A DNA stretch of 64,000 bases from the NCBI GenBank assembly GCA_001002285.1, contig LCLX01000001.1:30-64029 (forward strand), read 5' to 3'. How positions within the stretch are numbered: position 1 is the first letter of the stretch; each line of letters starts with the position of its first letter. The notes under the pieces are model-generated. The model made no database searches, was not told the origin of the DNA, and worked only from the letters and a program-made list of their open reading frames with translations. The stretch comes from Microgenomates group bacterium GW2011_GWC1_46_15 (GTDB lineage Bacteria; Patescibacteriota; Microgenomatia; UBA1400; UBA12028). Both the position numbers and the translations under genes were made by a program. Of this stretch, positions 13,308 to 56,476 are shown piece after piece.

Positions 13308-13427
13308 CTGCATATAAGATTGGTGGACGTTTCCCCGCCCAAAAACTCTATTGCGTATATCCACGCAGTTCTGTCACCAAACGCTGCCCAATTCCGCCCG
13401 CCAACGTTACACATAAAAGGCGCTCAT

Positions 13428-24508: not shown

Positions 24509-24514
24509 ACATGA

Positions 24515-28100: not shown

Positions 28101-28331
28101 ATGCACACAGCAACAATAACACAAAAAGGGCAAATAACGATTCCCTTGGTCTTGAGGGAAGCCTTTGGATTAAGAGCGTACGGTAAAGCCAGGCTGGAAC
28201 AAGGAGATGGTTTCATCAAGGTATACGCGCAGGAGGACATTTTGGATTTAGTTGATACATTTGTTCCCAAAGTGAAAAAACCACTCATGAAAACCCGCGA
28301 GGCGTTTGAAAAGAAATATACGAGGTTTTAA
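28101..28331 (+). CDS. AbrB/SpoVT-type antitoxin (VapB-like)
   Basis: 76 aa; ITQKGQITIPLVLREAFGL swapped-hairpin motif; overlaps PIN gene start (ATGA). Confidence 0.65.
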   Translation: MHTATITQKGQITIPLVLREAFGLRAYGKARLEQGDGFIKVYAQEDILDLVDTFVPKVKKPLMKTREAFEKKYTRF

Positions 28332-28750
28332 TGATCTATTTTATAGATACAAACATTTTTTTGAGAGTTCTCATACGGGAAAACGAAAGCGCGTTTCAGC
28401 AGAGTAAAGCCTTTTTAGAGATGGTAAAACGCAATGTATATGACGCGGTAACAAGCACGATGGTGATTTCCGAAATAGTGTGGACTCTGGGCTCCTATTA
28501 CAAATTTCCAAAGAAAAAAGTACTACGGACAATACAAGGAATACTTCATCTCAGCGGGCTAAAAATCGTGGACGAATACGATATAAACAAATCTCTTGCA
28601 CTCTATGAATCCCACACATGTAAATACATAGACGCCATGATCGCAGGAATGCCGGGGGTACAGTCGGGCGCCTGGAACATCGTTTCCTATGATAAGGAGT
28701 TTGACAAATTGGGTGTCAAAAGAGTGGTGCCCGCAAAATTGTTGAAATAG
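28331..28750 (+). CDS. PIN-domain ribonuclease toxin (VapC-like)
   Basis: 139 aa; N-terminal FIDTNIF acidic motif, PIN-like spacing of D/E residues. Confidence 0.75.
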   Translation: MIYFIDTNIFLRVLIRENESAFQQSKAFLEMVKRNVYDAVTSTMVISEIVWTLGSYYKFPKKKVLRTIQGILHLSGLKIVDEYDINKSLALYESHTCKYIDAMIAGMPGVQSGAWNIVSYDKEFDKLGVKRVVPAKLLK

Positions 28751-28756
28751 TATTGA

Positions 28757-30169
28757 TTGTTATTCCCCTCCTTTTTCGTTAGTATGGAAGCTACTATGAG
28801 TGATGGAAACTTTGAGGGCGGAGCTCCGTCCACATCAGCACCAATAGCTCCGGTAGTAGATACGCCGGCGGTGCAGCCACCTCCATCCAATGAGGTCTCT
28901 GTAGAACAAGAGGCAACCAAGCGGTGGACTCCACCAAATCTTGATGACATTCCAGAGATGAAAAACGCAAAAAAACTTGGAGACAAAGAAACAAGCACAG
29001 ACTATGCGGCGTTCAAAAAAAGAGATAAGGATGGGAGCCTCATTCACGTTGATTTATCTGGAATGACCGACGAACAGAAAGAAAAAATCGATGGAATAGA
29101 CACATACTACGAGTTTGGGGGACAAACCGCGTATCATGATTTTGCAACATGGGCGGCCTCCGAAAAAGTTGGATTGTATGAGGAAAGGAAAAGCGAAGGC
29201 GGCCAAACAATAGGATTTCTTCCAAAAGAAGGAGTAAGTGTTAAAGACGCGTTTGATAGATTTCTCATTGAATCAGATAAAGGAAAAGCTATCGTCGCTT
29301 CAAAAACGACAGAAGTAGAAAAACAACGCGTGCGCCAAGAAGCAGATGGAGAATTTCTTGAGGGGATTGAAAAAGCGGTCGAAGACAGGAATTTGGGGGA
29401 GTTTACGCGACTGTATAGAGAAAGAATACAAAACGTCCTTAGAGATGGGGGGTTGAGCGATCAAGAAGTTGAAGAAATTTTTTCTTCGCAGAACGCATTT
29501 GTCCAAACGCTGAGAGAAATTGCAAGTAAAGGTGATCAAGATACAGAGGAAAAACCAACTGATGATGGAGTAAAAAAAGAACCCAAAACCCCTCTTGAAA
29601 AACTACTAGCGGGGGGAGATGAAGGAAGGCTAAAGAAACTACGAAAAAAACTTGGAGAACTTGATTTTTCTGCAGCGACAAACTTTGGAGAATCAATAGC
29701 CGCCGCAATTGAAAATGAAATGGACCTAGGAATACTTATTGATTATTTCTGCACAGGAAGGTATTACGACAAAATTGCGAAGAGCTTGGGATATAAATCA
29801 AAAGAAGAACTTGGGACAAAAGGAATTGGTCCCTCGGAAATTGAAGACTATACAAAAAGAGATCCCAAAAAAGAACTTCTCCTTTTAGCCAAGGGATTGG
29901 AAGAGGCGAGAATCATATCGGAAGAAGAATATAGAACCTATCTTGAGAGCGATTCCGCAGAAATATTAAAAAGTGAAGAATTTAGAAAAAAATTATCCAA
30001 TATTTCGAAAGAAAATAAACATAAATTTGATGAAGGGATTGTGAAAGAAATGAATAGGCTTGGACATGAAATCTCAAGAGAAGGGTTTGCATATTTAATG
30101 ATGATTCCTGAAAATGTAAAAAATCTTGGAGGAAATCAAACAAAAAACGAAGAACATGAGCAAGAGTAA
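28757..30169 (+). CDS. hypothetical acidic protein (ORFan), AT-rich island
   Basis: 470 aa, E/K-rich, no signal peptide or known motif; distinctly lower GC than flanks. Confidence 0.4.
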   Translation: MLFPSFFVSMEATMSDGNFEGGAPSTSAPIAPVVDTPAVQPPPSNEVSVEQEATKRWTPPNLDDIPEMKNAKKLGDKETSTDYAAFKKRDKDGSLIHVDLSGMTDEQKEKIDGIDTYYEFGGQTAYHDFATWAASEKVGLYEERKSEGGQTIGFLPKEGVSVKDAFDRFLIESDKGKAIVASKTTEVEKQRVRQEADGEFLEGIEKAVEDRNLGEFTRLYRERIQNVLRDGGLSDQEVEEIFSSQNAFVQTLREIASKGDQDTEEKPTDDGVKKEPKTPLEKLLAGGDEGRLKKLRKKLGELDFSAATNFGESIAAAIENEMDLGILIDYFCTGRYYDKIAKSLGYKSKEELGTKGIGPSEIEDYTKRDPKKELLLLAKGLEEARIISEEEYRTYLESDSAEILKSEEFRKKLSNISKENKHKFDEGIVKEMNRLGHEISREGFAYLMMIPENVKNLGGNQTKNEEHEQE

Positions 30170-30191
30170 TATTGCATGGTAAAATAACGGT

Positions 30192-32738
30192 ATGAATCCA
30201 GGATCGGGCTTATCAGGTTTTGAGAGAGGGAGATATTTTGATGCTCCAAAAGATGCTGGTGGCAACGTTATTCAACCCACCGCGTTAAACGAAATTAAAC
30301 TAGATGGCCAGCATCCCTACGTTGCCGTAGATCTTTGGGAACAGTATTCTCTTGATCGGCTTCGAGAAAAAGAATCTTTCATTAGAGAGGCATTAATTTT
30401 ATTAAATGCGGCGAAATCTCATCCAAAAATAACACCAGAAGATTTGGCGGCAATAGAACAGCTATCGAAACGAATTACAGACATTATTGCGAGACTTCCG
30501 GAAAAAGAAAAAGGAACAGACACAATAAAAAAATATTTACTTCGAAGAAAATCAATAGACCAAGTAACCTACGAGAGACTTACAACAACAGAGGCTGGTG
30601 CACGAGCAATTGCGAGAATGCTTATTGACGAAATGCATGTGCAAATAGGGATTATCCAAGACTCAGACAAAATTTATATTAACTCGGATATTGCATCTTG
30701 GAAATTTGAAATACAATCAGGACTAGAAACAGATCTCAAGTCCTTAGGAGAGTCTCTTCAGTCTTTAAGTCCAAGCCACGAAAAAATAGGAGAGCAGTTT
30801 CTCACAGATCTTTTTGCCATTTCGAAGTTAACAAAACTATGTAATGGATTAGAGAGTACACAAAAGAATGCTAAAGGAACGGCGGAGTATCTTGATAGTA
30901 TTAAAGTTCATCTCACAGACGGACAGAAAAAAAGAATAATTGCCATAGCTGGAAAGGAATATTGCGAGAAAGATGGAAGGTATTTAGCGCAGGATGTTCA
31001 TGATGCCTTAGTAATGTATGAGGCTTTATGTGCTCCAGAAATAATGACTATTGAAACGGAAGATGGAACAATTATTCATGGATATCCTGTTAAAACTAAA
31101 TATAATGCATTTCCCCAAAGTATCGCTTCAAATATAGAAATAAGATACGCAATTAGAAGAGCAATAGGTGCGATTCGTGGAGAAAATCCCACAGAACTTG
31201 GGCAATTGGGACGCGACTTGACTGTAGCTCTTGCAGAAAAAGATCCAAAAGAAAAAAGAAGAAAGATAAAAAAACTTTTAGAAGAGAATATTTCTTTTTA
31301 TAAGGAAAAGGCAAAAACAGATGAAAAAGCAAAAATGGACGATGCGGGAACAACAAAACATTCTTGGTTTGCGGAACTAATGGCGATTAATTATCTTGAA
31401 GGAGAAGTATATTCTGCGCATTATGATGCTGGACAAATAAAAAAGGACTCAAGCGGACAACCTATTCTTGGAAGCAGTGGCTATCCAATCATTGATCGCT
31501 TCGGTGGATGCGCCGCAACGTATAAGTTTGCCGTTGTTACTAATGCGGCGGCCGGCATGGCGAAATATAGTATTCCCGGAGAAGCGGAGCGAGGAGACCC
31601 AGGACCACCAATCTTAAGAAATATTTTAGTTGCTCCACTACTTCCATTAGATGAATACCTTTTTATTGAGGAAGGGAAGCGTGGGACAGCGAGCAGATTA
31701 ATGGGAATGACTTTACGTGAAGCAATTTTTAATACAACCTCTGCAGAAGAATTAGAACAGGTTTGGAATAGTTCCGCAGAGAATCTTATTAACGCAGATG
31801 AACAAGTTCAGGGGGCCATACATGAGGGGTGGGCATTTTGGGAGATGATGGTGAAGGGTATGGGAATTAAATTTTCTAAGATTGCCCACGTTGCTGAATG
31901 GTCAGAGGGACTTGACATAGAAATAGATCCATCCATAGAAACCAAATTAAAGGGGGTGTCGAGCGGAATAGAATACTGGCTAATAAGGGATAATATTAGA
32001 AATAAAAATTCTATTCAAAAACTTTTTGTGAAAGAATTTGGATCAGGAACCGATTGGAGAAAAGAATACATAAGATACAAAAAGTTCGAGGCAGTTGTAG
32101 TTGGGATAAAAAGGAGCGGGGGAGATGTTGATTTAGCGGTTCAGCAATTTCAAAGAAATGAAGGATTAACACAAAATATTGTGGACACATACAAAAAAAT
32201 ATACAACGAATTGCGCAAAATTGCCTCACAGGACTTTGATTTGGCGGAGGGTTGGGATAAGGGATCTCCTGGCGAAAATGATGAATATTTTATGAGATTT
32301 TCTGAGCGCGTGTTCACAAGAATTTTTGGTATTGATATAAAACAGACCAAGGAAGGAAAGTATGGAGAATTTGTTAAAGAAATTTTCAAAAATGACGTAA
32401 CTGATTGGATAAGGACAATGAAAAAATTTGTTATAGGGCTTCTTGTTATAGGACAAATACAACTCAATAAAGAGGCAGCAAACATTCAAAAAGATGATGT
32501 GCTCGCTATAAAAGCAATGTTAAATTATGATTTTTGGCACCATGAGCAAGAACGGCTTTCCGTGAAAATAGTGAGAGCGATGCGGGGAATTAGTGGTAAA
32601 ACAATTGAATTTACCGGAGTTGGTCTGTTTGAGCAAGATGAAGTTAATGCAATTATGAAAGATGCCGGAGTTCCGCGTGGAGTCATTGTTGACGCAGAGC
32701 ACGTGTGGAAAAGAGTACAGCAAATCAAACACGGTTAA
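30192..32738 (+). CDS. hypothetical large protein (ORFan), AT-rich island
   Basis: 848 aa, no recognisable catalytic motif; 23-nt spacing from upstream ORFan (operonic). Confidence 0.4.
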   Translation: MNPGSGLSGFERGRYFDAPKDAGGNVIQPTALNEIKLDGQHPYVAVDLWEQYSLDRLREKESFIREALILLNAAKSHPKITPEDLAAIEQLSKRITDIIARLPEKEKGTDTIKKYLLRRKSIDQVTYERLTTTEAGARAIARMLIDEMHVQIGIIQDSDKIYINSDIASWKFEIQSGLETDLKSLGESLQSLSPSHEKIGEQFLTDLFAISKLTKLCNGLESTQKNAKGTAEYLDSIKVHLTDGQKKRIIAIAGKEYCEKDGRYLAQDVHDALVMYEALCAPEIMTIETEDGTIIHGYPVKTKYNAFPQSIASNIEIRYAIRRAIGAIRGENPTELGQLGRDLTVALAEKDPKEKRRKIKKLLEENISFYKEKAKTDEKAKMDDAGTTKHSWFAELMAINYLEGEVYSAHYDAGQIKKDSSGQPILGSSGYPIIDRFGGCAATYKFAVVTNAAAGMAKYSIPGEAERGDPGPPILRNILVAPLLPLDEYLFIEEGKRGTASRLMGMTLREAIFNTTSAEELEQVWNSSAENLINADEQVQGAIHEGWAFWEMMVKGMGIKFSKIAHVAEWSEGLDIEIDPSIETKLKGVSSGIEYWLIRDNIRNKNSIQKLFVKEFGSGTDWRKEYIRYKKFEAVVVGIKRSGGDVDLAVQQFQRNEGLTQNIVDTYKKIYNELRKIASQDFDLAEGWDKGSPGENDEYFMRFSERVFTRIFGIDIKQTKEGKYGEFVKEIFKNDVTDWIRTMKKFVIGLLVIGQIQLNKEAANIQKDDVLAIKAMLNYDFWHHEQERLSVKIVRAMRGISGKTIEFTGVGLFEQDEVNAIMKDAGVPRGVIVDAEHVWKRVQQIKHG

Positions 32739-32749
32739 TTACTTCTGTC

Positions 32750-34531
32750 TTAAACTGGAAATCCCTCATCACCTTTTACCGATTCGTTCCTACTAGGCTG
32801 GAGATTTGAGATAGTTTCTTTACGCTTCTTTGTTTCAGGTGTCTCTGGCACTTTTTCTGGCGTGAGAACCTGACCAATTTGCTCCGCTATTTTAATATTT
32901 GTAATCTGCTGGTTAGCGAACTTCGCAACTTTATCAACTTGTGGTGCCACGTATTTTATTGTAGCAGGGGCAACAGCCCCAACGCCAGTTCCTATAAGTC
33001 CTCCAGCGAGCATTTTGCCAACACCCTGTCCACGTTGCGAATATGCACCAACAGCTGCCCCCCCAATAGCACCAAGAGAGGAAGTTGCTCCAAGAGAAAG
33101 CGCTTCTGGGAGGATTTTTCCCATTCCTGGTAATGTGGGACCAATTCCAGGGACCAGTTGTCCACCCTTCCATCCTTTACCCAGATTTTCTCCAATCTTC
33201 GGCAACCACTCATCCATCAATCCCTTCGCGCCAAGCCACTTTTTGCTCATCTCAACAGCCTCGGGGATAAGCATGAGAATGCCGAGGGCAATCAGACCAG
33301 ACGCAGCGCCGGAAAATCCATCACCCACTGTAATTTGTGGAGCCTGGAACCCACCGGTATCACCCGCGCGGTATCCAATACTTCCTTTTCCGCTTCCGCC
33401 AAGCGCGAGTGCAAGGAAAATCATCACGATCACAACGGGGAACGGCAATAATGTCGCAGCAAGGTTTTTTATCCATTGCACAAAATCTCCGCCGTCTTTG
33501 AGCGCACCAAGCAGCAACTGGAACGGCGCAAAAATCACCGAAATAATGAATGTTACATAACTTTTCAATAATTCAAAAAAGGTTTTGATGACTGCAAAAA
33601 ACATGGCAACTGCGATAATGACATACCCAACGACACCGACTGATTTTCCAACGATGTTTGATGCAAAATCTCCAGTATTTGCGAAAAGGTTTTCCGCAAT
33701 ATCTCCAATTGCTTTTGCCGCACCACCAACAACACTCCCCTTTACTCCGCTGTCACCGATACCAAAAATAAGACCGAGACCATTTGTTACAATATCTCTT
33801 GATAGTGCGATGTCAATCAATGTAAGATTATCTCCAAACTTCGATGTATCAATCAAATTTGCAAACACCCCCGTGATGAAGTAAATCACAAGATACATGA
33901 TGTCGATCATGAAGCCGGCGATGGCATACGAAAACGTAATCAGTAGCAGCGTAATCACGAGGTTGGGGAGCGCGTTACTAATGGTAATCACGGTTTGGCC
34001 GTGCAAATTCTTGCGGAACATAATCATGAACCCAATCGCGATAAACACGAGGACAAACACAACGTACGAAAGATCGCGGAACGCTTTCCACACAGGCAAG
34101 ATGGGGTTCAAGCTCTTGAATCCGATGCCCTGCGCGTACGCCTGTGAAACAAGCGGAGAGTGTTGAAGAAGATCAGCAAGCCACAACTCGCCACTCGCAG
34201 GCGGGTTTTTAATCATCATCGCGATAGCATTTCCCATCTCAGGGACAACGCCCTTGACAACGTACTGGCCTTTTTCATCTTGCACGCCCAGCAACATTGC
34301 CCCAATGCCGCCAACTTGTGAGCCGGTGGTGTAGAGGGTGGCCGACTCAAGAGGATACGTTCCGGTTCTTGCGCTGTTGATGATGGTTTGGTCAAACGTC
34401 TGTTTCGAGGGGACAGCTTCGGCCTGCGCGTACGCAATGGGGGTGGCAAAAAACACAACAGCAAAAACGCCCAAAAACACCGCAAATATTGCGCAAAAAA
34501 ACCGGCGGCCAAACTTCCTCATATGTTTCAC
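32750..34531 (-). CDS. polytopic membrane protein, VirB6/TrbL-like (topology- and context-based)
   Basis: 593 aa; signal peptide, periplasmic domain, about 7 TM helices, Gly-rich C-terminal region. Confidence 0.4.
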   Translation of the reverse strand: MKHMRKFGRRFFCAIFAVFLGVFAVVFFATPIAYAQAEAVPSKQTFDQTIINSARTGTYPLESATLYTTGSQVGGIGAMLLGVQDEKGQYVVKGVVPEMGNAIAMMIKNPPASGELWLADLLQHSPLVSQAYAQGIGFKSLNPILPVWKAFRDLSYVVFVLVFIAIGFMIMFRKNLHGQTVITISNALPNLVITLLLITFSYAIAGFMIDIMYLVIYFITGVFANLIDTSKFGDNLTLIDIALSRDIVTNGLGLIFGIGDSGVKGSVVGGAAKAIGDIAENLFANTGDFASNIVGKSVGVVGYVIIAVAMFFAVIKTFFELLKSYVTFIISVIFAPFQLLLGALKDGGDFVQWIKNLAATLLPFPVVIVMIFLALALGGSGKGSIGYRAGDTGGFQAPQITVGDGFSGAASGLIALGILMLIPEAVEMSKKWLGAKGLMDEWLPKIGENLGKGWKGGQLVPGIGPTLPGMGKILPEALSLGATSSLGAIGGAAVGAYSQRGQGVGKMLAGGLIGTGVGAVAPATIKYVAPQVDKVAKFANQQITNIKIAEQIGQVLTPEKVPETPETKKRKETISNLQPSRNESVKGDEGFPV

Positions 34532-34611
34532 ATTTTACTGGCATCGTGAAGGGAACGCAACACACCTCTTTCTAGTAAAAAGACATCTTGACAAAAATAA
34601 ATCATTGTATA

Positions 34612-34952
34612 TGATGGTCATATACAACATGAAACCAAAAACAATCCTATTTCCAGAGTTATTACGGTTTGAATGGGATCGGGGAAATGAAAGAAAAAAT
34701 AAAGAGAAACATGGAGTTGAACAAAAAGAATGTGAAGAAATTTTCTTCAACGATCCACTCATTCATCTTGATATTAAACACTCGATTACGGAAACACGCC
34801 TTTTTGCTTTGGGAAAAACACGCGAAGGGAGATATTTGTGCCTTATTTTTACGGTAAGAAAGGAATGTGTGCGGGTGATTTCTGCTCGAGATCAAAGTAA
34901 GGAAGAGCGATCAGCATATACAACACATAAAAGAAAGGGAAAGAAGAGGTAA
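34612..34952 (+). CDS. brnT: BrnT ribonuclease toxin (DUF497)
   Basis: FEWDRGNERKNKEKHGVEQKECEEIFFNDP...ISARDQSKEER matches BrnT motif (FEWD..K...N..KHGV; ISAR). Confidence 0.75.
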
Positions 34953-34957
34953 ATAGT

Positions 34958-35236
34958 ATGAAAAAAATGAAAAAATCTATTCCGGTCTTCAAAAACGAGC
35001 GCGATGAAGCGAGATTTTGGTTGTCGCACGATACGACCCAATATATTGATTGGAGTAACGCCGCGCGCGCCGAGTTTCCCAACCTCAAACCAACCACGAA
35101 AACGATTACGTTGCGCCTTCCCATGATGTTGTTGAACAGCATTAAGAAGTTGGCAAACAAAAAAGACGTGCCGTATCAATCGCTCATGAAGGTGTTTCTT
35201 GATGAAAAAGTCAGAGAAGAAATGCTCACACCATGA
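34958..35236 (+). CDS. brnA: BrnA antitoxin
   Basis: 92 aa; ITLRLPMMLLNSIKKLANKKDVPYQSLMKVFL RHH-like C-terminus typical of BrnA; 5 nt after brnT. Confidence 0.7.
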   Translation: MKKMKKSIPVFKNERDEARFWLSHDTTQYIDWSNAARAEFPNLKPTTKTITLRLPMMLLNSIKKLANKKDVPYQSLMKVFLDEKVREEMLTP

Positions 35237-35248
35237 TAGAATCAGGGC

Positions 35249-38200
35249 ATGCGGCTACGCTCAAAAATTTCTTTTTTCGTCTCCAGGGAACCCTCCACCC
35301 TGAGTTCCTCAAAAAGGAAATATCTCGCATATTGTATTTTTCTCATCATACTTTTTGCTTTTGAAATTTTTGCCACGCTTGCACCGATCAAAGCATTTGC
35401 CGCGGGTAACGTTCTTGGCACACACCTCGCATTTTTTGACCCGGGCAATCAAATTCGCATCCTTCAGTTCATTAAGTCGCTCAAACCACCCGCACAGTAT
35501 CCTATAACCGCGGTTGCGGAAATCAGTTGGGGAGAGGACAGTAATAATTCGCTCACCAGCCTAGTGGCGGAGCTAAACGCAGGGGATTATGCAATTAACC
35601 TTCGTATTGCTGGACTGGCAGCGGACACAACACCAGCTCAGGTGGTCGCGCTCGCACAAAAACTCAATCAAGTTACATGGGTGTATGGCAAACCCATCAT
35701 CATTTTTGGAAACGAAGATAATAATATTGATGTTGAGTGGTATTTTTCTGATCTTAGCGTTGCATCAGCAAAGTACGCCGAGTTATTTACCGCGTTCGCG
35801 GGTGCGTTGGACACATCTAAAATGGATTTGTCTGCCGCGCCAATTCCAGAACACCCCAAATATCCACAAAGCGCGTTTTTAAACGGCGCGGCAACCGTAT
35901 TTAAAAGTCCAAAAATTTCAGCATTTGTATTTAACTTGTACGACAACGGCGCTGGCTCGTTTGAGCCGTCCGGGTGGAGAACTCAGCAAGCCTTTGAGGG
36001 GATTAAGCCTCGCAAAGTATTAACCGAGTTTGGTCCAAACCCGCAAAATCCAGCAGACAATACATATAAAAATTGGTCGGAGTTCCTCAAGAAATATGAA
36101 AATACCCTTCCTGAGGGGTTCCAAACCGCAACGGTGTTAGTCCCGAACTTGTGCGATAAAACGACAACGCTCGCGAATCAGTGGTACTACTACATTCTCG
36201 GCAATTTTTACGACTCAAACCTCAATGAAATTGATGAGTCATGTTCAGCGCAAACGGGAACCGTAATTTTTCCTGGGCCTGACGATATTCTTTCCTCTTG
36301 TGCAGCAACAGGCGGTGGTGCGGCGTGCGAGTCAAAGTTTCAGGAAGTTGCATCAAAGTACATGATGACGTGCTCGCCCGTTATTACGTTTAAGCCGAGC
36401 ATTGATCCCGCAGGCGAGGAAATTAAAATAGGGTCGTTTGTGGGAACGCTTCTTGATTATTGTGCGAACAGGCAGTCGGATAACAACTGTATTTTTGATC
36501 CGGTAAAAAACACGATTGATGTGAATGCGTCTAGTGCGACATTCCCGTATATACGGAGCCAAACTCCTGGCCGCACGGGTAGCCTTGAAGGATTTTTTAC
36601 CACGGATACCCAGCGTACGCGGACCAATGTAAATGATTTTACACAGTACTCACCGCTTTCCAAACTTCAACCAGCGGGATTAACGTGCAAGCAAAATATC
36701 CAACAACTTGAGTCCGTGGAAACGTTGTGCCGCGAGTTTTCTGATCCACTGAAACAAGGAAGAATGGCGGATAACCAACCGTCACTTGTTGAGAAATTCC
36801 GGTCTGCGCTTGGGCTTAAACCTGGCGCTTGCGACCTTAATGCAACAATTGATGGAAAAAAGTACCTCGATATCTTGAAAGATGTGCGGGATACAATGGG
36901 TGGCAATGCACAAAGCTATTGTACTTCTGACACATTTTTACATCCGCAGGCAGATACAGAAACTACATTGGTGAAACTCGTCATGCGGGTACAGCCGGTA
37001 CTCCGTGCGGCATATAAAAAAGCGTACTTTGTTATTTATCTCCAAGCGCCTTCAGAAAATACGGATGCGGCATCAGCATTAATAAGCGCGCTTTTTCACA
37101 CAAAAGACAAAGGTCAGGAGCTTTTCAAAGTCGTTCCCGTGCTCATTCCCGCAACGTTTGGATCACAGAAGGACGACAGCGATATTTACCGCATTGACGG
37201 AACAAAAGTTGAGGGAGCGTCGTTTAACGGAGCATACACACAAACAATTTCTCCACTCTTGAGTGGAAATGCACAAAAGAATATCTCAGATAAACTTATT
37301 GAGGATGAACAAACCATCTTTTCCCAAATGCAGAGATTGGGTGGGTCGGCACCGGGGAATCCTGACTTACTTAATGTTTCTGGATGTGTTCCAGGGCCAG
37401 AAAGTCAAACATCACTTGCATGCCAGTTTGCTTCCCGCGTAAACGCAGGGCTACAAAAACATGAGTTTACAATTCCAAATCAAAAGGGAACGTGCGAGTT
37501 TCACGAAGAAGTTGCTGGTGGGCAAACTGCACAGGTTTTAAACACGCCGGTTAAAGCAGGATTTTTAGACACCATTCTTGCATTTTTCTCCTCACTCTTT
37601 GAACCACAAAAGTCCGACATAAGTGTTACGGGAAATATTAACGCAGGAAAACTTGACGAGATTTCGGAAGAACAGGCAAAACTCCGCGTCTTTTTGCTTA
37701 TTCCACGCTCAGAATTCGGCCTTATTAAATACACGGAAAAAGCATTATACCAGGCGATTGTTCCGGATGCGGCGTCACAAAAAGTTTTTACGGAAGTAAA
37801 AGAGGGAAAGATTTTAGACACGAATGAGTTTTTACGGACACAGGGAGTGATGTTGAATGAACAGGGTGGCGCAAAACGTTCGTATTTAACAAACGCATCA
37901 CCCGCGCCCGTTATTCCTCCCGCAACACCTGTGCCGATCACGACAGAACTGACCGCGTCGTTCAAGCCCCAAGGAGACGCAAACCCGCTTCTGTATGGAG
38001 GGTGGTTAGCGCGCATGATTCACTCGTTTACCGCAAACGTGCTTGCTCCCGTAGCCTCAACAATTTATGATGCCAGCTACGAAACAACGAAAGGTTTAGA
38101 GAACTATTGGTTAAGGGGGGGGAAAGGAATGGGTTTGAACTACGGCAAGGAAATTACCTCATGCGATGGATACCGTCAGCAAACAACGATGATGCCCAAC

Positions 38201-38710
38201 ATTGCTGGAGTGAAACAGCAAATTTGTGACGTTGCCACAAAATATAACATTCCATATCAAGTGCTTTGGGGAACGTTTAAGATCGAAGGAGGGCGCGCGA
38301 GATCACGTGCATATAATGGCGGCGGGACGGTTGCTTGCAGCGTGAACTCTGTTGGAGCGGTTGGACCATTGCAGCATCTCGAAGATATCTGTCGCCCCGG
38401 CCAGATATCGCAGGAAAATGAAGCTCAAGGGAAAAATGTATGCGATTTTAATATTGGACTGGACGTAACGGCGCAAATTTATAAACGCTTTACCAATGAT
38501 CCGAATTATCAATATGCAGACGGGAAACCAAATTGGTATTGGATAACGGGGGAGTATAACATGGGTGGTAAAGTAACAGGATTTGGGCCCAAGTGCGAAG
38601 GTGCGCCAGCGACCGACGGATGTAATGGAGCAAACTATTGCGTCTGTGCAATAGAAACATTTGCAGATGAGATTTCTTGTCCCAATGCTCCGGAATTACT
38701 GAATATATAA
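35249..38710 (+). CDS. large secreted protein with C-terminal lysozyme-like/SLT-type domain (VirB1-like candidate)
   Basis: 1153 aa; signal peptide/TM; C-terminal KIEGGRARSRAYNGGGTVACSVNSVGAVGPLQHLEDI resembles the ES...GA.GLMQ transglycosylase motif. Confidence 0.45.
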   Translation: MRLRSKISFFVSREPSTLSSSKRKYLAYCIFLIILFAFEIFATLAPIKAFAAGNVLGTHLAFFDPGNQIRILQFIKSLKPPAQYPITAVAEISWGEDSNNSLTSLVAELNAGDYAINLRIAGLAADTTPAQVVALAQKLNQVTWVYGKPIIIFGNEDNNIDVEWYFSDLSVASAKYAELFTAFAGALDTSKMDLSAAPIPEHPKYPQSAFLNGAATVFKSPKISAFVFNLYDNGAGSFEPSGWRTQQAFEGIKPRKVLTEFGPNPQNPADNTYKNWSEFLKKYENTLPEGFQTATVLVPNLCDKTTTLANQWYYYILGNFYDSNLNEIDESCSAQTGTVIFPGPDDILSSCAATGGGAACESKFQEVASKYMMTCSPVITFKPSIDPAGEEIKIGSFVGTLLDYCANRQSDNNCIFDPVKNTIDVNASSATFPYIRSQTPGRTGSLEGFFTTDTQRTRTNVNDFTQYSPLSKLQPAGLTCKQNIQQLESVETLCREFSDPLKQGRMADNQPSLVEKFRSALGLKPGACDLNATIDGKKYLDILKDVRDTMGGNAQSYCTSDTFLHPQADTETTLVKLVMRVQPVLRAAYKKAYFVIYLQAPSENTDAASALISALFHTKDKGQELFKVVPVLIPATFGSQKDDSDIYRIDGTKVEGASFNGAYTQTISPLLSGNAQKNISDKLIEDEQTIFSQMQRLGGSAPGNPDLLNVSGCVPGPESQTSLACQFASRVNAGLQKHEFTIPNQKGTCEFHEEVAGGQTAQVLNTPVKAGFLDTILAFFSSLFEPQKSDISVTGNINAGKLDEISEEQAKLRVFLLIPRSEFGLIKYTEKALYQAIVPDAASQKVFTEVKEGKILDTNEFLRTQGVMLNEQGGAKRSYLTNASPAPVIPPATPVPITTELTASFKPQGDANPLLYGGWLARMIHSFTANVLAPVASTIYDASYETTKGLENYWLRGGKGMGLNYGKEITSCDGYRQQTTMMPNIAGVKQQICDVATKYNIPYQVLWGTFKIEGGRARSRAYNGGGTVACSVNSVGAVGPLQHLEDICRPGQISQENEAQGKNVCDFNIGLDVTAQIYKRFTNDPNYQYADGKPNWYWITGEYNMGGKVTGFGPKCEGAPATDGCNGANYCVCAIETFADEISCPNAPELLNI

Positions 38711-38714
38711 ACAC

Positions 38715-39149
38715 TTACGGTTGCACGATCCTAAAAATCGTGATTTTTTCACCTACCCCCGTGAACACACTAATAAAGTTAATAATAATCCAACCGAGAA
38801 GGGCAACGACAATACCGGTAATGGCCATCGTAAGCGTTTTCTTTGCCGCATCAGTTGATTTTGGATTTCCACCAGAGGTGAGATACAAAAACGAACCAAT
38901 CAGCAACATCACAAACGCGGCAATGCCAATTGCGGTCATTGCAATACCAAGAATGTTTTGAACGACACACTCAGCGCCTTGTAGCGTGGCAACATCAGCG
39001 GTTCCTTCCGGAACTGTTTCAGTAGAGACACATCCGGACTGGATATCTTTCCATGACTTTGTTACTTGGGCGTGTGCCGGAGTTGGAGATGCTAAAACAG
39101 TGGCGAAGCAAAATACTGCAACAACGGAAGAAAAAAGAAACTTTCTCAT
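38715..39149 (-). CDS. T4SS pilin-like (VirB2/TrbC-like) protein with extended Cys-containing N-terminal domain (ORF track extends start to 39179)
   Basis: Signal peptide MRKFLFSSVVAVFCFATVLA; C-terminal LIGSFLYLTSGGNPKSTDAAKKTLTMAITGIVVALLGWIIINF matches paralog motif. Confidence 0.5.
   Translation of the reverse strand: MRKFLFSSVVAVFCFATVLASPTPAHAQVTKSWKDIQSGCVSTETVPEGTADVATLQGAECVVQNILGIAMTAIGIAAFVMLLIGSFLYLTSGGNPKSTDAAKKTLTMAITGIVVALLGWIIINFISVFTGVGEKITIFRIVQP
38725..38750 (+). terminator. rho-independent terminator (CACGAT-7 nt loop-ATCGTG + ATTTTTT)
   Basis: Perfect 6-bp stem plus T-run 15 nt after stop of the 1153-aa gene. Confidence 0.5.
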
Positions 39150-39183
39150 GGGGTCAATTGTAGCATACACGAAAACCAAAAGA

Positions 39184-39213
39184 CCTCCCTTGCGGGAGGC
39201 CTTCCAATTTCAA
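39184..39213 (-). terminator. rho-independent terminator (CCTCCCGCAAGGGAGG + TCTTTTGGTTTT on minus strand)
   Basis: Hairpin plus U-rich tail downstream of pilin gene 39258-39593. Confidence 0.5.
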
Positions 39214-39257
39214 ATCCCCTTTCAGAGGATTCTCTCTGTACACGGAAAAATTAAATT

Positions 39258-39593
39258 TTAGTACAACGGTTTAATGTTACTCAGATTGAAAATATCAATG
39301 CCGAACAAGAACGCGACAACCTGCATAAGCGCGTAGGACGCTGCAACAATGGCAAGGCCAACAAGCGCCGCGGTGATTTTTCCTCGAGCTGCTTCTGTCT
39401 TTCCCTTATCTCCGCCGGAAGTAATCCACTCAATGCCTCCGAGCACGAGATATGCGAACACGAGAATCGCGGCAACAATCAATGCGATTCCAAGGACGCG
39501 GGAAAACAACAAACCCAGATCAGTAATCAAAAACCCATTAGCCCTTGGGTCAATTGTAATAGGTGGCTTTGCCTGTGCAATCAACGCGAACAT
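39258..39593 (-). CDS. T4SS pilin-like small membrane protein (paralog 2)
   Basis: LVLGGIEWITSGGDKGKTEAARGKITAALVGLAIVAASYAL; two TM helices. Confidence 0.55.
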   Translation of the reverse strand: MFALIAQAKPPITIDPRANGFLITDLGLLFSRVLGIALIVAAILVFAYLVLGGIEWITSGGDKGKTEAARGKITAALVGLAIVAASYALMQVVAFLFGIDIFNLSNIKPLY

Positions 39594-39637
39594 ATTCCTC
39601 CTTTATTCACACGTATACCTGTATTGTACGGCGTGTT

Positions 39638-39949
39638 TTATAGTTTGACAATATCAATCCCAAACAGATACTGCAAGAGCCCAAAAAATGCAAACGATGC
39701 TGCGGTAATTGTTAACCCAATGATAGCGTTCGTGATGTCCTGGCGCGCGGCATCGAGTTTTCCTTTGTCTCCGCCGGCCGTTGTCCACTTTAGGCCGCCA
39801 AGAACGAGAAATGCAAACGTCGCAATGCCAGCCAATATTAAGCCAAAACCAGCAAATCTTCCAATAAATATACCCAAATCAAACTGCGTGTTCGGTGAAA
39901 CTTTTGCGAGTTCACCCCCGATGTCTACCGTTGCTTGAAAAAGTGTCAT
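39638..39949 (-). CDS. T4SS pilin-like small membrane protein (paralog 3)
   Basis: LVLGGLKWTTAGGDKGKLDAARQDITNAIIGLTITAASFAF. Confidence 0.55.
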   Translation of the reverse strand: MTLFQATVDIGGELAKVSPNTQFDLGIFIGRFAGFGLILAGIATFAFLVLGGLKWTTAGGDKGKLDAARQDITNAIIGLTITAASFAFFGLLQYLFGIDIVKL

Positions 39950-39983
39950 AAAAGTTTCTTTCTATTTTGTCGTTCCACCATTA

Positions 39984-40337
39984 TTAATTAAGCACACTAA
40001 AATCTGGCTTCAATAAATTAATGCCAAGCGGCCCACTCAGGAATGTGCTGATTGCCGCGACAGAACTCAACACAACAAATCCGATAACCGCTTGAATGAT
40101 GCGCTCTTTTGCTTGCTCAATCTTTCCTTTTTCTCCACCCGCGGTAATCCAGTAGAATCCGCCAACGAGAAGATACAAAATAATGCCGAGACCACCCACA
40201 ATAATGGCGGTCTGCCAGAGGACAGCAATATATTTTGCCAGTACGCCAGCTGCCGCGGCTGGAGTACTTGCATTCGACACATCGCCCGGTAACGCGGGGT
40301 TTGTAATTTGCGTGACAAGTGTTGACAAAATTATCAT
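39984..40337 (-). CDS. T4SS pilin-like small membrane protein (paralog 4)
   Basis: LLVGGFYWITAGGEKGKIEQAKERIIQAVIGFVVLSSVAAI. Confidence 0.55.
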   Translation of the reverse strand: MIILSTLVTQITNPALPGDVSNASTPAAAAGVLAKYIAVLWQTAIIVGGLGIILYLLVGGFYWITAGGEKGKIEQAKERIIQAVIGFVVLSSVAAISTFLSGPLGINLLKPDFSVLN

Positions 40338-40711
40338 TTAAACAACCCTCCAAGTGCCGTTGCGGGATTTAAGATACTCAATCCGAGCACACCACCCACA
40401 ATCCCAATAATGGCTTGTGAAACAATAACGATAATAAGCCCAATTGCGGCGTTTGTTAACTGTGTGCGCGCTGCCTCAACTTTACCCTTTTCACCGCCAG
40501 CCGAAAGCCACGCGAGACCTCCGAACACAAAGTACATGAGGAACATAAGACCGCCAACGATTGTGAAGAAACCAAGGAGGACGGAGAGAAACTGCTCGAT
40601 GGGTTGGCCGCCGACATTTGCGCCACTGGCATCGAAATTAGGTTGGAAGTTTTCCGCTCCTGGTCCGGTAATGGTTCCTTCAAGTGGATTTTGTGCAAGA
40701 AATGTTTTCAT
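40334..40711 (-). CDS. T4SS pilin-like small membrane protein (paralog 5)
   Basis: FVFGGLAWLSAGGEKGKVEAARTQLTNAAIGLIIVIVSQAI. Confidence 0.55.
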   Translation of the reverse strand: MKTFLAQNPLEGTITGPGAENFQPNFDASGANVGGQPIEQFLSVLLGFFTIVGGLMFLMYFVFGGLAWLSAGGEKGKVEAARTQLTNAAIGLIIVIVSQAIIGIVGGVLGLSILNPATALGGLFK

Positions 40712-40717
40712 ATTAAT

Positions 40718-41140
40718 TTATAAGTATTCGTTTTGTCCCCCACCACCGCCCCCACCTGGTGTTTGAATTGTTTCTTCCGGTCCCTTCAACTGTGGTTTCA
40801 AGAAAAACGTTGGATCCTTAAACAACACCCACCCCATCACCGCCATAATTGCTGGTGCCATAATCATCAACACAATGCCAAGCAAGCTCATGTTTAACTT
40901 GCTTAGTACTTTTTCGTGTGCCTTTGCGTCACCAGAACCAGTTAAGTAAAGATACCCAGCAGTGATAATATTGAATAGTGCGAACAACCCGCCCGATAAC
41001 ACAATAAGCGTAAGCATATTAGAGATAAAAACAATAAGACCGCCGCTTGTCCCATATGCTTTAAGTGCTTCGGGTTGCGTAATTGTTCCAAAAAAAGTTT
41101 CCATTTCACTCGATGTTTGTGCGAGAAATGTTGTTAGCAT
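40718..41140 (-). CDS. divergent pilin-like small membrane protein (paralog 6)
   Basis: YLYLTGSGDAKAHEKVLSKLNMSLLGIVLMIMAPAIMAV; C-terminal GGGGGG tail. Confidence 0.4.
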   Translation of the reverse strand: MLTTFLAQTSSEMETFFGTITQPEALKAYGTSGGLIVFISNMLTLIVLSGGLFALFNIITAGYLYLTGSGDAKAHEKVLSKLNMSLLGIVLMIMAPAIMAVMGWVLFKDPTFFLKPQLKGPEETIQTPGGGGGGGQNEYL

Positions 41141-41161
41141 AATAAGTTCTTCTATCGTGCG

Positions 41162-41482
41162 TTAAAACGATAAAATCTGCAACCCCGTTACAATTTGTAT
41201 GATCTGGATGATCCAGTACGACGCAAAGATTACGAGAAATCCAATGACCGCGCCGGTAATCGCCTGTGTTCCTTTTTCAAGTCCTTTTGGATCTCCTCCT
41301 GAGGAAATTATACTGAACCCACCAAACACAAGCAAGGCAAACACAATAAGTCCGGCGGCGATGTACGCGTTGGGCAACAATGTATTAATGAAGGCGGCAG
41401 GAGTTCCAAACGTGTCGGCAACAGTTTGAGTTTTATTGAGAAGAAATTTCTCTTTTAAATTAACTGCAGCCAAGAGATTCAT
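41162..41482 (-). CDS. T4SS pilin-like small membrane protein (paralog 7)
   Basis: LLVFGGFSIISSGGDPKGLEKGTQAITGAVIGFLVIFASYWIIQIIQIVTGLQILSF. Confidence 0.55.
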   Translation of the reverse strand: MNLLAAVNLKEKFLLNKTQTVADTFGTPAAFINTLLPNAYIAAGLIVFALLVFGGFSIISSGGDPKGLEKGTQAITGAVIGFLVIFASYWIIQIIQIVTGLQILSF

Positions 41483-41514
41483 ACTGATATTGTAGCACAG
41501 GGCAAGTTCGGGAC

Positions 41515-41907
41515 TTACTGCGTAGTTCCCGACCCCGTTGCTGTTTGTCCCGCGGTTGGTGTTGGCGAAGGTGTTGGTGTTGGACTAGGATTGTTTTTTG
41601 CCGCTCCACCGCCCCCGCCGTTGCCATTTTTGCCAACTTCTTCAACTTCTTGCGTCACTGTAAACGACGCTAACTCATCGACACTAAATATTCTTCGCTT
41701 CTTAAGATCTTCAAGCGCCTGCGTGTTAATAATGGGACTCAACGAAAGAATTTGTTGTTTCACATTCGGCGTGAGCGTATTTTTACGCAGTGAAAAATAC
41801 ACGCCCAATCCAATCCATACAACCGCGGCGAGCAAGCCGAACACAAGAATGTACAGCAGATCTTTACGCTTGAGGAGTGATGAAAGTTTTGACGTGTTTG
41901 GGTTCAT
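41515..41907 (-). CDS. small membrane protein with Gly-rich and TPTPSPTPT low-complexity C-terminus
   Basis: 130 aa, single TM. Confidence 0.35.
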   Translation of the reverse strand: MNPNTSKLSSLLKRKDLLYILVFGLLAAVVWIGLGVYFSLRKNTLTPNVKQQILSLSPIINTQALEDLKKRRIFSVDELASFTVTQEVEEVGKNGNGGGGGAAKNNPSPTPTPSPTPTAGQTATGSGTTQ

Positions 41908-41924: not shown

Positions 41925-42674
41925 TTATTTCTTTACTGCCACTGGAGCAACTCCATAGTATGCGGCTCTCAGTGTTGCCTTTGCTTGCAGGAGAGGGTTG
42001 GTTTGAACGACTGCCGCTCCGCGCGCGGTTTGCTGATCTTGTTGATTAATAATGAGCGTATCTACGGTTAAGTATCGGTCAGCGGAAAGAAGTGCTTGAA
42101 AAAAGTCATGAATGTCTAAGTAGGAACCTTTAACCGAAATAGTGAGAAGGAATGCGGTAACGGCATTTTGTTGGGGCACCGCGGGGGTTGCTGACGAAGT
42201 TTTTGCTGCTGGTTTTTGCCCAGGTTGTGCCGATTGTTCTGGGGTTTGACCGTCAGGAGTTGTTTCGCGCGGAACGCTACTGGTTTGAACGCTGGAAAGC
42301 ACAACGTTGTGTTCTGATGCAATTTTTTCAATCCGGCGAAGTAACCCATCAATATCCGGTGTATTTGGAAGAGCAAGATCAAGCAGCGCTAAATCTTTTT
42401 GAAGCGCGAGTACCTCATTGCTTGTGGTGGAAAGCGCGGCGATTTTCTTTGTGAGCGCCTGGTCGGTCGTCTTTCTATCAGCAATATCTTTGAGCAATTG
42501 AGACATTGTGGTCAGCGTTGGCCCGATGGCGGCGAGCGCTAAAAACATAACCGCCACGATGGTAATAATGAGTTCAGTGGAAACTTTCGCGATGGGTTTT
42601 TGGTAGAACTTTTGCAGTTCCTGCATCGAGCGGTTACGGATCATGCTGAAGGTGACGCGGATTGGTGTGCTCAT
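41925..42674 (-). CDS. type IV pilus assembly protein PilO-like
   Basis: 249 aa; N-terminal TM, coiled coil, C-terminal LTISVKGSYLDIHDFFQALLSADRYLTVDTLII PilO-like. Confidence 0.5.
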   Translation of the reverse strand: MSTPIRVTFSMIRNRSMQELQKFYQKPIAKVSTELIITIVAVMFLALAAIGPTLTTMSQLLKDIADRKTTDQALTKKIAALSTTSNEVLALQKDLALLDLALPNTPDIDGLLRRIEKIASEHNVVLSSVQTSSVPRETTPDGQTPEQSAQPGQKPAAKTSSATPAVPQQNAVTAFLLTISVKGSYLDIHDFFQALLSADRYLTVDTLIINQQDQQTARGAAVVQTNPLLQAKATLRAAYYGVAPVAVKK

Positions 42675-42691
42675 AATTTTTACATAGCGCT

Positions 42692-43240
42692 TTATTTTGC
42701 CAGCGCGATCCTCATCGTAAACTCAAATCCCGCTAGCCCCTGGTCCGAGCTTTTTACTTGATCAACAACGAGACCTTTTACAAGTGATTTTCTCTGTAAA
42801 TTTACGATAAAGATCGCCAAATCTTTAGATGACGGCGCTGTTCCCACAACCTGCACTTGTTGGTCATGGAGTTGTGTAACAGAAAGAACAACATTTGGAG
42901 GAATAAGTGTGGAAACAACGTCAAGAATGTCCAGCGGTGTGAGTAGCGCTTTTTGCTGGGTCAAAAACTCTGTTTTCTTTTGAATTGTTCGTATATCGTT
43001 TTCGAGTGATCCATACGAGCTGATGAGGTTAGATTTTTGAGTAATGCCAGAATTGAGATCGGTGAGATCGCGGTCCAGTTTAAACCGCGTCGCAAAGCTG
43101 ATAATCACGACGAGTTCAGTAAAAACCACGAGGTATCGCCCAATGTTTGATGCCCACAGCAACATCCGTCCAAGCGCCGTTTCGTAAAACGGGTCCTGCG
43201 GCATAAGATTAATAGAAAGTGGGCGAGGCTTTGTTGTCAT
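42692..43240 (-). CDS. type IV pilus assembly protein PilN-like (ORF track start 43561 probably over-extended)
   Basis: Start at MTTKPRPLSINLMPQD; TM, coiled coil, PilN-like C-terminus. Confidence 0.5.
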   Translation of the reverse strand: MTTKPRPLSINLMPQDPFYETALGRMLLWASNIGRYLVVFTELVVIISFATRFKLDRDLTDLNSGITQKSNLISSYGSLENDIRTIQKKTEFLTQQKALLTPLDILDVVSTLIPPNVVLSVTQLHDQQVQVVGTAPSSKDLAIFIVNLQRKSLVKGLVVDQVKSSDQGLAGFEFTMRIALAK

Positions 43241-43296
43241 GGTGTTGGTGTACGATGGGAGTACAATACAGGCTGTCCATTTCGTACGGAAAAAGT

Positions 43297-43839
43297 ATGA
43301 CAGAAAACACACTGATCTTCCAGCTGAAAAAGGGGAGCGCGCAGGCGGTGGAACGGTGGTACGCGGAGTACTCCAAACGACTATTCCGTTTTGTTGTGTT
43401 AAAAGTGTCAAATACACACGATGCCGAGGAGATTTGCCATGATACGTTTTTATCCTGCCTAGAAAGTCTGCCGGTGTTCCGCGAAAACTCCTCATTGTGG
43501 ACGTGGATGTGTTCGGTCGCGCGGCACGAAATTGCTGATTACTTCCGCAAGCGCTACGCAAAAAAATTGTTACGCATGGTGCCGTTTAGCGATGCGGTGT
43601 TGCCCGAAAGTTATCTTGATATGCATGAAACATCAGATGCAGTGCGCGCCGTTTTACATGCTTTGCCGATCCGTGACCGCGAACTTCTCATCTTGAAGTA
43701 TATTGATCGGTTGAGTGTGCAGAACATTGCCAGCAAGCTAAATATGAAGTTTAAGGCTGTTGAGTCGGCGTTGTTCCGCGCGCGCAAGGCGTTTCAGGCG
43801 GTATATGCGCAGCAAGAAGAAAACGTTGAGGAAAAGTAA
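43297..43839 (+). CDS. ECF-type RNA polymerase sigma-70 family factor (ORF track start 43219)
   Basis: Region 2 FRFVVLKVSNTHDAEEICHDTFL; region 4 HTH LSVQNIASKLNMKFKAVESALFRARKAF. Confidence 0.8.
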   Translation: MTENTLIFQLKKGSAQAVERWYAEYSKRLFRFVVLKVSNTHDAEEICHDTFLSCLESLPVFRENSSLWTWMCSVARHEIADYFRKRYAKKLLRMVPFSDAVLPESYLDMHETSDAVRAVLHALPIRDRELLILKYIDRLSVQNIASKLNMKFKAVESALFRARKAFQAVYAQQEENVEEK

Positions 43840-56288: not shown

Positions 56289-56374
56289 GGAGAGGTGCAG
56301 GGAATGGTTATCCGGACAGTCTTGAAAACTGTTGCCGCAAGGCATTGTGGGTTCGAGTCCCACCCTCTCCGCCA
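56289..56374 (+). tRNA. tRNA-Ser (anticodon TGA), type II with long variable arm
   Basis: GGAGAGG...anticodon loop CTTGAAA...GGTTCGAGTCCCACCCTCTCCGCCA. Confidence 0.85.
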
Positions 56375-56391
56375 ACTTATTGGAATAACCT

Positions 56392-56476
56392 GGAGGGGTC
56401 GCCTAGTGGTTTATGGCAATAGTTTACTAAACTATCAGCGCAAGCTACCGTGGGTTCGAATCCCACCCCCTCCGCA
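56392..56476 (+). tRNA. type II tRNA, Ser-like, apparent anticodon ACT (loop TTACTAA); CCA not fully encoded
   Basis: GGAGGGG...GGTTCGAATCCCACCCCCTCCG; anticodon stem ATAGT/ACTAT. Confidence 0.7.

Follow-up and report, generated by a model that had tools for sequence, protein, structure and literature searches.

The window analysed here is a stretch of 64,000 nt from Microgenomates group bacterium GW2011_GWC1_46_15 (assembly GCA_001002285.1, contig LCLX01000001.1, positions 30 to 64,029 of the forward strand), and the gene in question is an open reading frame (ORF) at 35249..38710 on its plus strand, which starts with ATG, includes its stop codon within these coordinates and, according to the ORF listing and translation, encodes a protein of 1153 aa. 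An earlier description made from the letters alone (the sequence-only reading) had presented the product as a secreted protein of this length, and the ORF, the ATG and a signal-type N-terminus were all found. The protein is predicted to carry two glycosidase-like domains, one at each end of a Cys-rich core, and its gene adjoins an array of genes encoding VirB2-like pilins of a type IV secretion system (T4SS). Listed below are the parts of the gene, with the AlphaFold 2 (AF2) model and Foldseek fold searches among their supports; GH denotes glycoside hydrolase and SLT soluble lytic transglycosylase.

35249..38710, plus strand: whole gene, predicted exported multidomain protein (ORF, ortholog P0001, 98 family representatives, AF2 model)
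35249..35404, plus strand: residues 1-52, predicted signal peptide or N-terminal anchor, the next part starting at 35405 (hydropathy, ortholog, low model confidence)
35405..36283, plus strand: N domain, residues ~53-345, predicted (beta/alpha)8 barrel, clan GH-A-like (AF2, Foldseek against PDB and BFVD, family conservation)
35714-35716, plus strand: candidate acid/base Glu156, motif GNEDNN, after strand 4
36026-36028, plus strand: candidate nucleophile Glu260, motif TEFG, strand 7
36284..38125, plus strand: middle region, residues ~346-959 (M1 346-600, M2 601-900, linker), Cys-rich mixed alpha/beta family core
38126..38707, plus strand: C domain, residues ~960-1153, predicted divergent SLT/GH23 lysozyme-like domain (AF2, Foldseek, family profile)
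38285-38287, plus strand: candidate catalytic Glu1013 in KIEGG (family conservation, alignment to MltC and P0096)

An ortholog, P0001, is 77% identical to the window protein and is encoded on a syntenic metagenomic contig of 41.7 kb; it opens with the identical residues MRLRSKISF, which supports the start codon. The ratio of nonsynonymous to synonymous substitutions (dN/dS) between the two proteins is 0.06-0.12 over residues 53-959, indicating strong purifying selection, and this value, together with the syntenic ortholog and the 98 family representatives, rules out a chance ORF. A hydropathy scan located a single hydrophobic segment in the whole protein, at its N-terminus, where a basic n-region precedes a segment at residues ~25-50 (hydrophobic core ~25-47) that is followed by AFA/AG, the slash marking the putative cleavage site of a signal peptide. 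The signal peptide of P0001 is shorter and classical, ending in KIFA/AG. The full-length AF2 model, with a mean predicted local distance difference test score (pLDDT) of 83.2 and a predicted template modelling score (pTM) of 0.68, has low pLDDT across residues 1-52. Outside the N-terminal segment the protein has 24 further Cys residues, which, along with the single hydrophobic segment and the AFA/AG site, point to Sec export and an oxidizing extracytoplasmic location.

The sequence-only reading had proposed that the C-terminal part is an SLT-like domain with a catalytic-type Glu, and this is borne out over ~130-190 aa. Both motifs quoted at the time are present, as K1011-I-E1013-G-G1015 and S1031-V-N-S-V-G-A-V-G-P-L-Q1042. 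The AF2 model of residues 960-1153 has a pLDDT of 91.8 and a pTM of 0.88, and the Foldseek search of this model against the PDB, a check of the kind that had been suggested, returned lysozyme-like or GH23 folds for all 58 of its 58 matches (MltF, MltC, MltE, Slt, SltB1, phi6 lysin, goose-type lysozyme, GH124 and FlgJ); an unrelated fold was not seen.

The SLT family is defined by three motifs, an 'E-S' pair (motif I), G-L-M-Q (motif II) and A-Y-N-x-G (motif III). In the window protein, KIEGG is followed by GAVGPLQ (1036-1042), which includes G1039-P-L-Q1042, and by YNMGG (1103-1107), which includes Y1103-N-M-G1106. In the larger hidden Markov model (HMM) alignment, 60 of 63 family members have Glu at position 1013 and the other 3 have Asp, and Glu1013 is invariant among the C-domains of 31 members that form a separate alignment, A2. 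The residue after it, G in the window protein (EGG), is G in 49 and S in 7 members, and the next position is S in 22 and G in 20. Further downstream, Q1042 is kept in 37, Y1103 in 30 and N1104 in 23 of the 63. The conserved Cys residues of the domain are C972, C1030, C1048, C1065, C1116, C1125, C1131 and C1133, with C1030 present in all 63 members, and the sequences suggest that the additional ones may form disulfides.

Homology at the sequence level is transitive. The Pfam SLT model (PF01464) gave no match to the window protein or to its isolated C domain even at E<=10, and a word-indexed homologue search with the C domain alone returned just one 100%-identical fragment. Across the family, 10 of 31 C-domains match PF01464 at E<=1 (best E 7e-7), and the full-length relative P0096 scores 25.5 bits over residues 654-766, above the gathering score of 21.3. 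This relative is found by a two-sequence profile (A1) at a library-wide E of 2.3e-4, and pairwise BLASTP aligns it to the window protein with 24% identity over 174 aa (E 8e-11), placing KIE1013GG on NLESG. An hhalign comparison of A2 with P0096 was disregarded as circular, P0096 being a row of A2, and the A1 profile and BLASTP are the non-circular links. Searched against PDB sequences, the A2 profile found two MltC lytic transglycosylases alone (E ~0.3), with the Glu1013 column aligned to the Glu of the MltC E-S motif, which we take to be the catalytic residue. The domain shares with the family-1 lytic transglycosylases (Slt70, MltC and MltE of Escherichia coli, MltF of Pseudomonas aeruginosa) and with goose-type lysozyme a predicted alpha-helical lysozyme-like fold, a candidate catalytic Glu at the end of a helix after the hydrophobic 'LWG..IE' stretch, and approximate forms of the downstream G-x-x-Q and Y-N-x-G motifs. 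By its predicted fold, its conserved Glu and its transitive homology, the C domain is assigned to the lysozyme-like/GH23 superfamily, and by score it is not a member of Pfam SLT; it is a strongly divergent member of the superfamily rather than a textbook SLT.

At the other end of the protein, residues 56-300 form eight alternating beta/alpha units in the full-length model, giving a compact barrel of ~290 aa that is followed by a small beta-rich Cys-containing segment. N155-E156 of the family-invariant motif G-N-E156-x-N-N stands directly after strand 4 (150-153) and E260 of T-E260-F-G lies inside strand 7 (255-263), an arrangement that corresponds to the layout of clan GH-A ('4/7') retaining glycosidases. 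The best PDB match of the N domain by Foldseek is PslG (GH39; E 2e-4), followed by GH30, GH10, GH5/26, GH53 and GH128 enzymes, and among the viral models of BFVD the top three matches (E 5e-5 to 3e-4) are proteins of phages labelled 'glycoside hydrolase family 5'. Of 51 family members, 50 keep E156, 46 N155, 49 N158, 50 R119 and 48 Y176, and the window protein has both Glu156 and Glu260. The (beta/alpha)8 barrel, the Asn-Glu after strand 4 and the Glu on strand 7 are held in common with the clan GH-A families PslG/GH39, GH5, GH10, GH30, GH53 and GH128. At the sequence level, the N domain of the window protein has no Pfam match, and its profile against the PDB gave chance-level matches only, none of them a glycosidase; the single weak Pfam contact is that of 1 of 29 family N-domains with PF11790 (E 0.005). 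Members missed by the N-domain HMM carry a Pfam GH5 'Cellulase' domain at this position (P0034, 25.4 bits against a cut-off of 23.5; P0019, 23.2 bits). Residues ~53-345 are predicted from the model to be a clan GH-A-like TIM-barrel glycosidase.

The ~1000 aa that precede the C-terminal domain had been considered novel as a whole, a view that the barrel narrows to residues ~346-959, which on sequence comparison are the only novel portion of the protein. This middle region is mostly confident in the AF2 model and has a dN/dS of 0.09-0.12; a six-sequence profile of it had no PDB match, and no family member has a Pfam match there. No other part is shared as widely within the family. When all 1.84 billion representatives were searched exhaustively with HMMER, 98 relatives (representatives at 50% identity) were recovered, of which 58 had an E below 1e-10, and local HMM iteration detected M1 in 74 and M2 in 65 of these 98. 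Neither Pfam nor NCBIfam holds a whole-protein model for the family, a scan of GTDB genomes with the protein family gave no close relative, and the open-access literature searched contained no paper describing it.

Other genes of the window that bear on the locus are the following.

13320-14894: dnaA
15245-16357: dnaN
16360-18288, minus strand: VirB4-like ATPase
19398-20396, minus strand: PrgI-family protein
21401-24508, minus strand: 1035-aa protein, M23 peptidase domain at its C-terminus
32750..34531, minus strand: 593-aa polytopic membrane protein with several hydrophobic segments, a conserved neighbour
34338-34952, plus strand: BrnT toxin (PF04365, E 5e-21)
34958-35236, plus strand: CopG/BrnA antitoxin (PF12441, E 5.5e-31)
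38715..41907, minus strand: PF18895 (VirB2-like T4SS pilin) array of about seven small paralogs by Pfam, convergent to the putative hydrolase gene
38715-39179, 39258-39593, 39638-39949, 39984-40337, 40334-40711, 40718-41140 and 41162-41482, minus strand: pilin ORFs with a PF18895 match
41515-41907: ORF within the pilin array with no PF18895 match

The association with the pilins holds well beyond this window. The genomic context was read for nine other family members with ~20-77% identity, giving ten informative loci including the window, and a PF18895 pilin array of 3-8 paralogs adjoins the family gene in all ten. In six of them the family gene is co-directional with the pilins and stands last in their operon, which starts beside a divergent gene for an extracytoplasmic function (ECF) sigma factor, whereas an inversion of the block in the window and the three relatives closest to it makes the putative hydrolase gene converge on the pilins. 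The other constant neighbour is a polytopic membrane protein of ~600 aa, the window copy of which shares 36-38% identity with its counterparts beside P0014 (E 8e-64) and P0021 (E 3e-54) and is better conserved between the window and distant loci than the putative hydrolase itself. A VirB1-like context had been proposed for the gene, and the pilin linkage supports this in spirit. The proposed bracketing by a VirB6-like gene and the pilin array stands on the downstream side; directly upstream lie BrnT and BrnA, with the 593-aa membrane protein beyond them, and no Pfam, NCBIfam or PDB match identifies that protein as VirB6, although it may well be the VirB6 analogue of this lineage. The BrnT/BrnA pair is present in the window and in locus L001, is absent from that position in L002, L004, L005 and L090, and is an insertion between the membrane protein and the putative hydrolase gene, outside the system.

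The two heads of the protein vary more than its core. The window protein and its ortholog are 92% identical in the N domain, 82% in M1, 75% in M2 and 86% in the linker, after which identity drops abruptly to 46% in the C domain (window 38126-38707 compared with 12800-13411 of L001). The proportion of synonymous differences (pS), 0.49-0.62 elsewhere, rises in the C domain alone to a saturated 0.84, with a breakpoint at about residues 945-955 that coincides with a low-confidence inter-domain linker (958-967) in the AF2 model. The drop in identity and the jump in pS at this breakpoint argue that the SLT-like module did not just evolve faster but was swapped in a recombination event involving a more distant allele, and the sequences indicate a cassette-like replacement of a putative muralytic head between close relatives. 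Such an exchange suggests that the protein may be under diversifying pressure and so may face the host, and the variability of the heads is the strongest hint of such pressure on them. Across the family, both positions are variably filled, with some members lacking the N-domain, some carrying a Pfam-grade GH5 domain and some having other C-terminal tails. The members with other C-terminal modules in place of the window-type C domain are P0003, P0008, P0010, P0011, P0056, P0091, P0029, P0059, P0073, P0086, P0095, P0021, P0042, P0083 and P0046. By eye, and as an impression only, some of these tails contain lytic-transglycosylase-like motifs ('AMWGEESGF', 'ARSES...GPFQIN', 'IALNENGGL'); phmmer against the PDB found nothing relevant for them, and their comparison with the C family by hhalign did not reach significance (probability <=3%).

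Patescibacteria carry a monoderm-type T4SS near dnaA together with VirB2-like pilin arrays that are especially common in Microgenomatia (PMC12102498), and the window, with its T4SS genes beside dnaA/dnaN and its pilin array, fits this layout. Most Patescibacteria genomes with VirB2 have no detectable VirB1, for which other glycosidases might substitute, and this 2025 survey concluded that pilus biogenesis may not need VirB1 (PMC12102498). Considering the predicted folds, the conservation of the candidate residues, the purifying selection, the export signal, the family membership and the synteny, we infer an enzymatic activity, its substrates, a lytic transglycosylase or hydrolase chemistry and a functional link to the pilus. 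The role that we favour, and consider rather probable, is that of a Sec-exported two-headed glycan-cleaving enzyme tied to the VirB2-like pilus or monoderm-type T4SS, acting in the manner of VirB1, PrgK or TraG. In such an enzyme, a disulfide-rich M1-M2 core of ~600 aa would bear the N-terminal GH-A-like and the C-terminal SLT-like head. After export, the C domain, with Glu1013 as its single catalytic acid, would cut the bonds between N-acetylmuramic acid and N-acetylglucosamine (MurNAc-GlcNAc) in peptidoglycan, and the N domain, with Glu156 as acid/base and Glu260 as nucleophile, would cut a non-peptidoglycan polysaccharide of the wall, the capsule or the exopolysaccharide (EPS). Together, the two heads would open a local passage for the pilus or the T4SS through the polysaccharide and murein layers, and the wall being cut could belong to the cell itself or to the host cell that carries the attached epibiont.

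A number of observations weigh against this reading. The window protein, searched whole and in slices of 300 aa, has no match in Pfam, NCBIfam or, with phmmer, the PDB. The C domain differs from GH23 enzymes in falling below PF01464 detection, in carrying extra conserved Cys and in having E-G where they have the classical E-S dipeptide; its GLMQ and AYNxG motifs are approximate, and its fold matches score weakly (best E 0.037, TM ~0.45, nothing below E 1e-3). The N domain departs from the GH-A families in having no match at the sequence level and in its strand-7 Glu, which is kept in 38 of 51 members and is Gly in 11; generic non-glycosidase TIM barrels appear lower in its PDB fold list, and the N-domain profile of the window shows no sequence relation to the GH5 domain of P0034. 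Synteny is an association and not a mechanism, and the window gene, being convergent with the pilins, is not co-transcribed with them. Moreover, the M23 protein and its 592-aa neighbour could already supply a VirB1-type function.

Several other roles are conceivable for such a protein. It may be directed at the host, as a depolymerase displayed on the surface or associated with the pilus that breaches the host envelope and is not a housekeeping VirB1 analogue; its GH-A head would then act on capsule, EPS or secondary wall polymers and its SLT head on host murein, with the heads exchanged to track the wall chemistry of the host. The constancy of the M1-M2 core beside heads that are missing, replaced by GH5 or followed by other tails would fit such a role, as would the replacement of the C-module alone between close orthologs, and the best fold matches of the N domain are not murein enzymes but hydrolases of EPS and plant polysaccharides, along with depolymerase-like GH5 proteins of phages. 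Damage to the host envelope by patescibacterial lytic transglycosylases has also been proposed in reviews (PMC11665869). However, an immunity-like gene does not consistently follow the family gene, and the VirB1-type enzymes of monoderm T4SSs are likewise multidomain; module exchange could equally follow changes in the wall of the cell itself, and the hhalign result for the alternative tails gives no support to a muralytic nature of all heads. On balance, we regard a host-directed role as possible though unlikely. A related and equally tentative proposal, which we would at present doubt more than believe, is that M1-M2 is a hitherto unrecognized scaffold that docks on the VirB2-like pilus or T4SS and carries interchangeable glycan-cutting heads (GH-A or GH5 at the N-terminus, SLT and possibly other muralytic domains at the C-terminus). 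If so, the family would be a polymorphic, recombination-shuffled 'envelope drill' of epibiotic bacteria from the candidate phyla radiation (CPR) for breaching host cell walls, and head exchange would set the host range.

A general autolysin, remodelling the wall in growth, division and turnover and adjoining the pilins for historical reasons, appears quite improbable. Among housekeeping wall enzymes, lytic transglycosylases and glycosidases are common, the convergent orientation in the window and its closest relatives makes the gene a transcription unit of its own, and, as the toxin-antitoxin insertions show, unrelated genes are tolerated in this neighbourhood; yet the adjacency to the pilin array persists in all ten loci at ~20-77% identity and survives inversion, six of these loci have the gene at the end of the pilin operon, and the polytopic membrane neighbour is co-conserved. 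We give still less credence, and indeed very little, to a catalytically dead scaffold in which one or both domains retain the fold for binding glycans, as would a stalk or a lectin-like adhesin. Like adhesins, the protein is large, rich in Cys and elongated, its C domain lacks the E-S pair and falls below every curated model, and Glu260 is lost in 11 of 51 members, but Glu1013, Glu156 and their surrounding motifs are among the most conserved positions, as expected of active sites rather than of modules that only bind, and the window protein retains both Glu of the barrel.

The favoured role as a T4SS-associated wall hydrolase has counterparts in known systems. The VirB1-type hydrolases of monoderm T4SSs (PrgK of pCF10, TraG of pIP501, TcpG and TgaA; cited in PMC12102498) are likewise exported, multidomain and T4SS-encoded, and, as is predicted for the window protein, they pair an SLT/lysozyme-like domain that has one catalytic Glu with a second wall-degrading domain, presumably opening the wall locally. 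In these enzymes, the second domain is a CHAP, M23 or similar peptidase, whereas in the window protein it is a predicted GH-A-like TIM-barrel glycosidase; the heads of the latter are, moreover, separated by a ~600-aa core without known relatives, and its SLT domain lies below Pfam detection. The window gene is also linked not to virB4 but to an array of VirB2-like pilins, a feature normally missing from monoderm T4SSs. The essential T4SS cluster of Ca. Southlakia epibionticum encodes, beside virB4, SEML1_0006, with two lysozyme-like domains and a Cys protease, and the M23-like SEML1_0007 (PMC10633639, Table S2). Like the window, it is a T4SS locus of Patescibacteria that lies near dnaA, has a pilin array and encodes enzymes that degrade the wall, but no GH-A/SLT giant stands beside the Saccharibacteria pilin array, where SEML1_0014-0019 are followed by Hsp20. 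The window has its M23 giant (21401-24508) in addition to the GH-A/SLT protein, and the family is set apart from the Southlakia enzymes by its architecture, its position at the pilin array, its lineage and its lack of a match in the profiles searched. On the favoured reading, the family belongs with the T4SS-associated multidomain wall hydrolases, already known as a class.

In the one patescibacterial species tested, the T4SS is essential for epibiotic growth (PMC10633639). This widespread unannotated family offers a concrete candidate for the missing wall-opening enzyme in Microgenomatia-like lineages, with Glu156, Glu260 and Glu1013 as residues for mutation. It introduces no new principle, and it makes the 'missing VirB1' question and the role of the CPR pilus approachable by experiment.

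Other features of the region deserve mention. The clean intrinsic terminator that had been reported at 38725-38750 was not upheld: the candidate is a weak hairpin with a 6-bp stem (folding free energy -5.7 kcal/mol, z = -1.09), 30 of 200 shuffled sequences fold at least as well, and terminator-like sites in the region are no commoner than in shuffled sequence. The hairpin falls within the final codons of the pilin ORF on the opposite strand (38715-39179), which converges on the gene, and by inspection its stem is missing at the ortholog locus. Inside the pilin arrays of two other loci lies a gene for a GT87-family glycosyltransferase (L005 8332-9501 and L088 6287-7456), which may hint at glycosylation of the pilins or the wall. 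In the window, PilO-like and PilN-like genes, whose products are alignment proteins of the type IV pilus/T2SS kind, and an ECF sigma factor gene at 41925-43839 directly flank the array, and this mixture of type IV pilus and T4SS features (PilO, PilN and ECF sigma with a VirB2-like array) recurs in L001, L002 and L004.

Upstream of the putative hydrolase gene, at a distance of 11-19 kb, are the VirB4-like, PrgI-like and M23 genes. Beyond the M23 giant, within the minus-strand block 21401-26293, the 592-aa protein is unannotated, has no Pfam or NCBIfam match and may be another hidden wall hydrolase; by position, the M23 giant and this protein match SEML1_0007 and SEML1_0006 of the Southlakia T4SS cluster. 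Two large unannotated proteins (470 and 848 aa) are encoded at 28757-32738 on the plus strand, and a protein of ~834-848 aa recurs beside the membrane protein and the putative hydrolase in L002, L005 and other loci, probably as a component of the same module. Toxin-antitoxin modules are repeated in the T4SS/pilin neighbourhood, with BrnT/BrnA at 34338-35236, a 216-aa ORF and AbiEii at 26653-28052, and a small ORF and PIN at 28101-28750.

As to the source of the DNA, the class I aminoacyl-tRNA synthetase of the window (4340-6700) is 57-76% identical to counterparts in metagenome-assembled genomes (MAGs) labelled Paceibacterota, Woesebacteria, CPR3 and Patescibacteria. Many GTDB-representative MAGs with the closest class I tRNA synthetase are titled 'uncultured Pseudomonadales/Gammaproteobacteria bacterium' (L007, L010-L012 and others), which looks like placeholder or mislabelled third party annotation (TPA) taxonomy. 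Finally, 56289-56475 contains a tandem pair of tRNA-Ser genes separated by 18 nt, with anticodons given by ARAGORN as TGA and ACT, the latter unusual for Ser.

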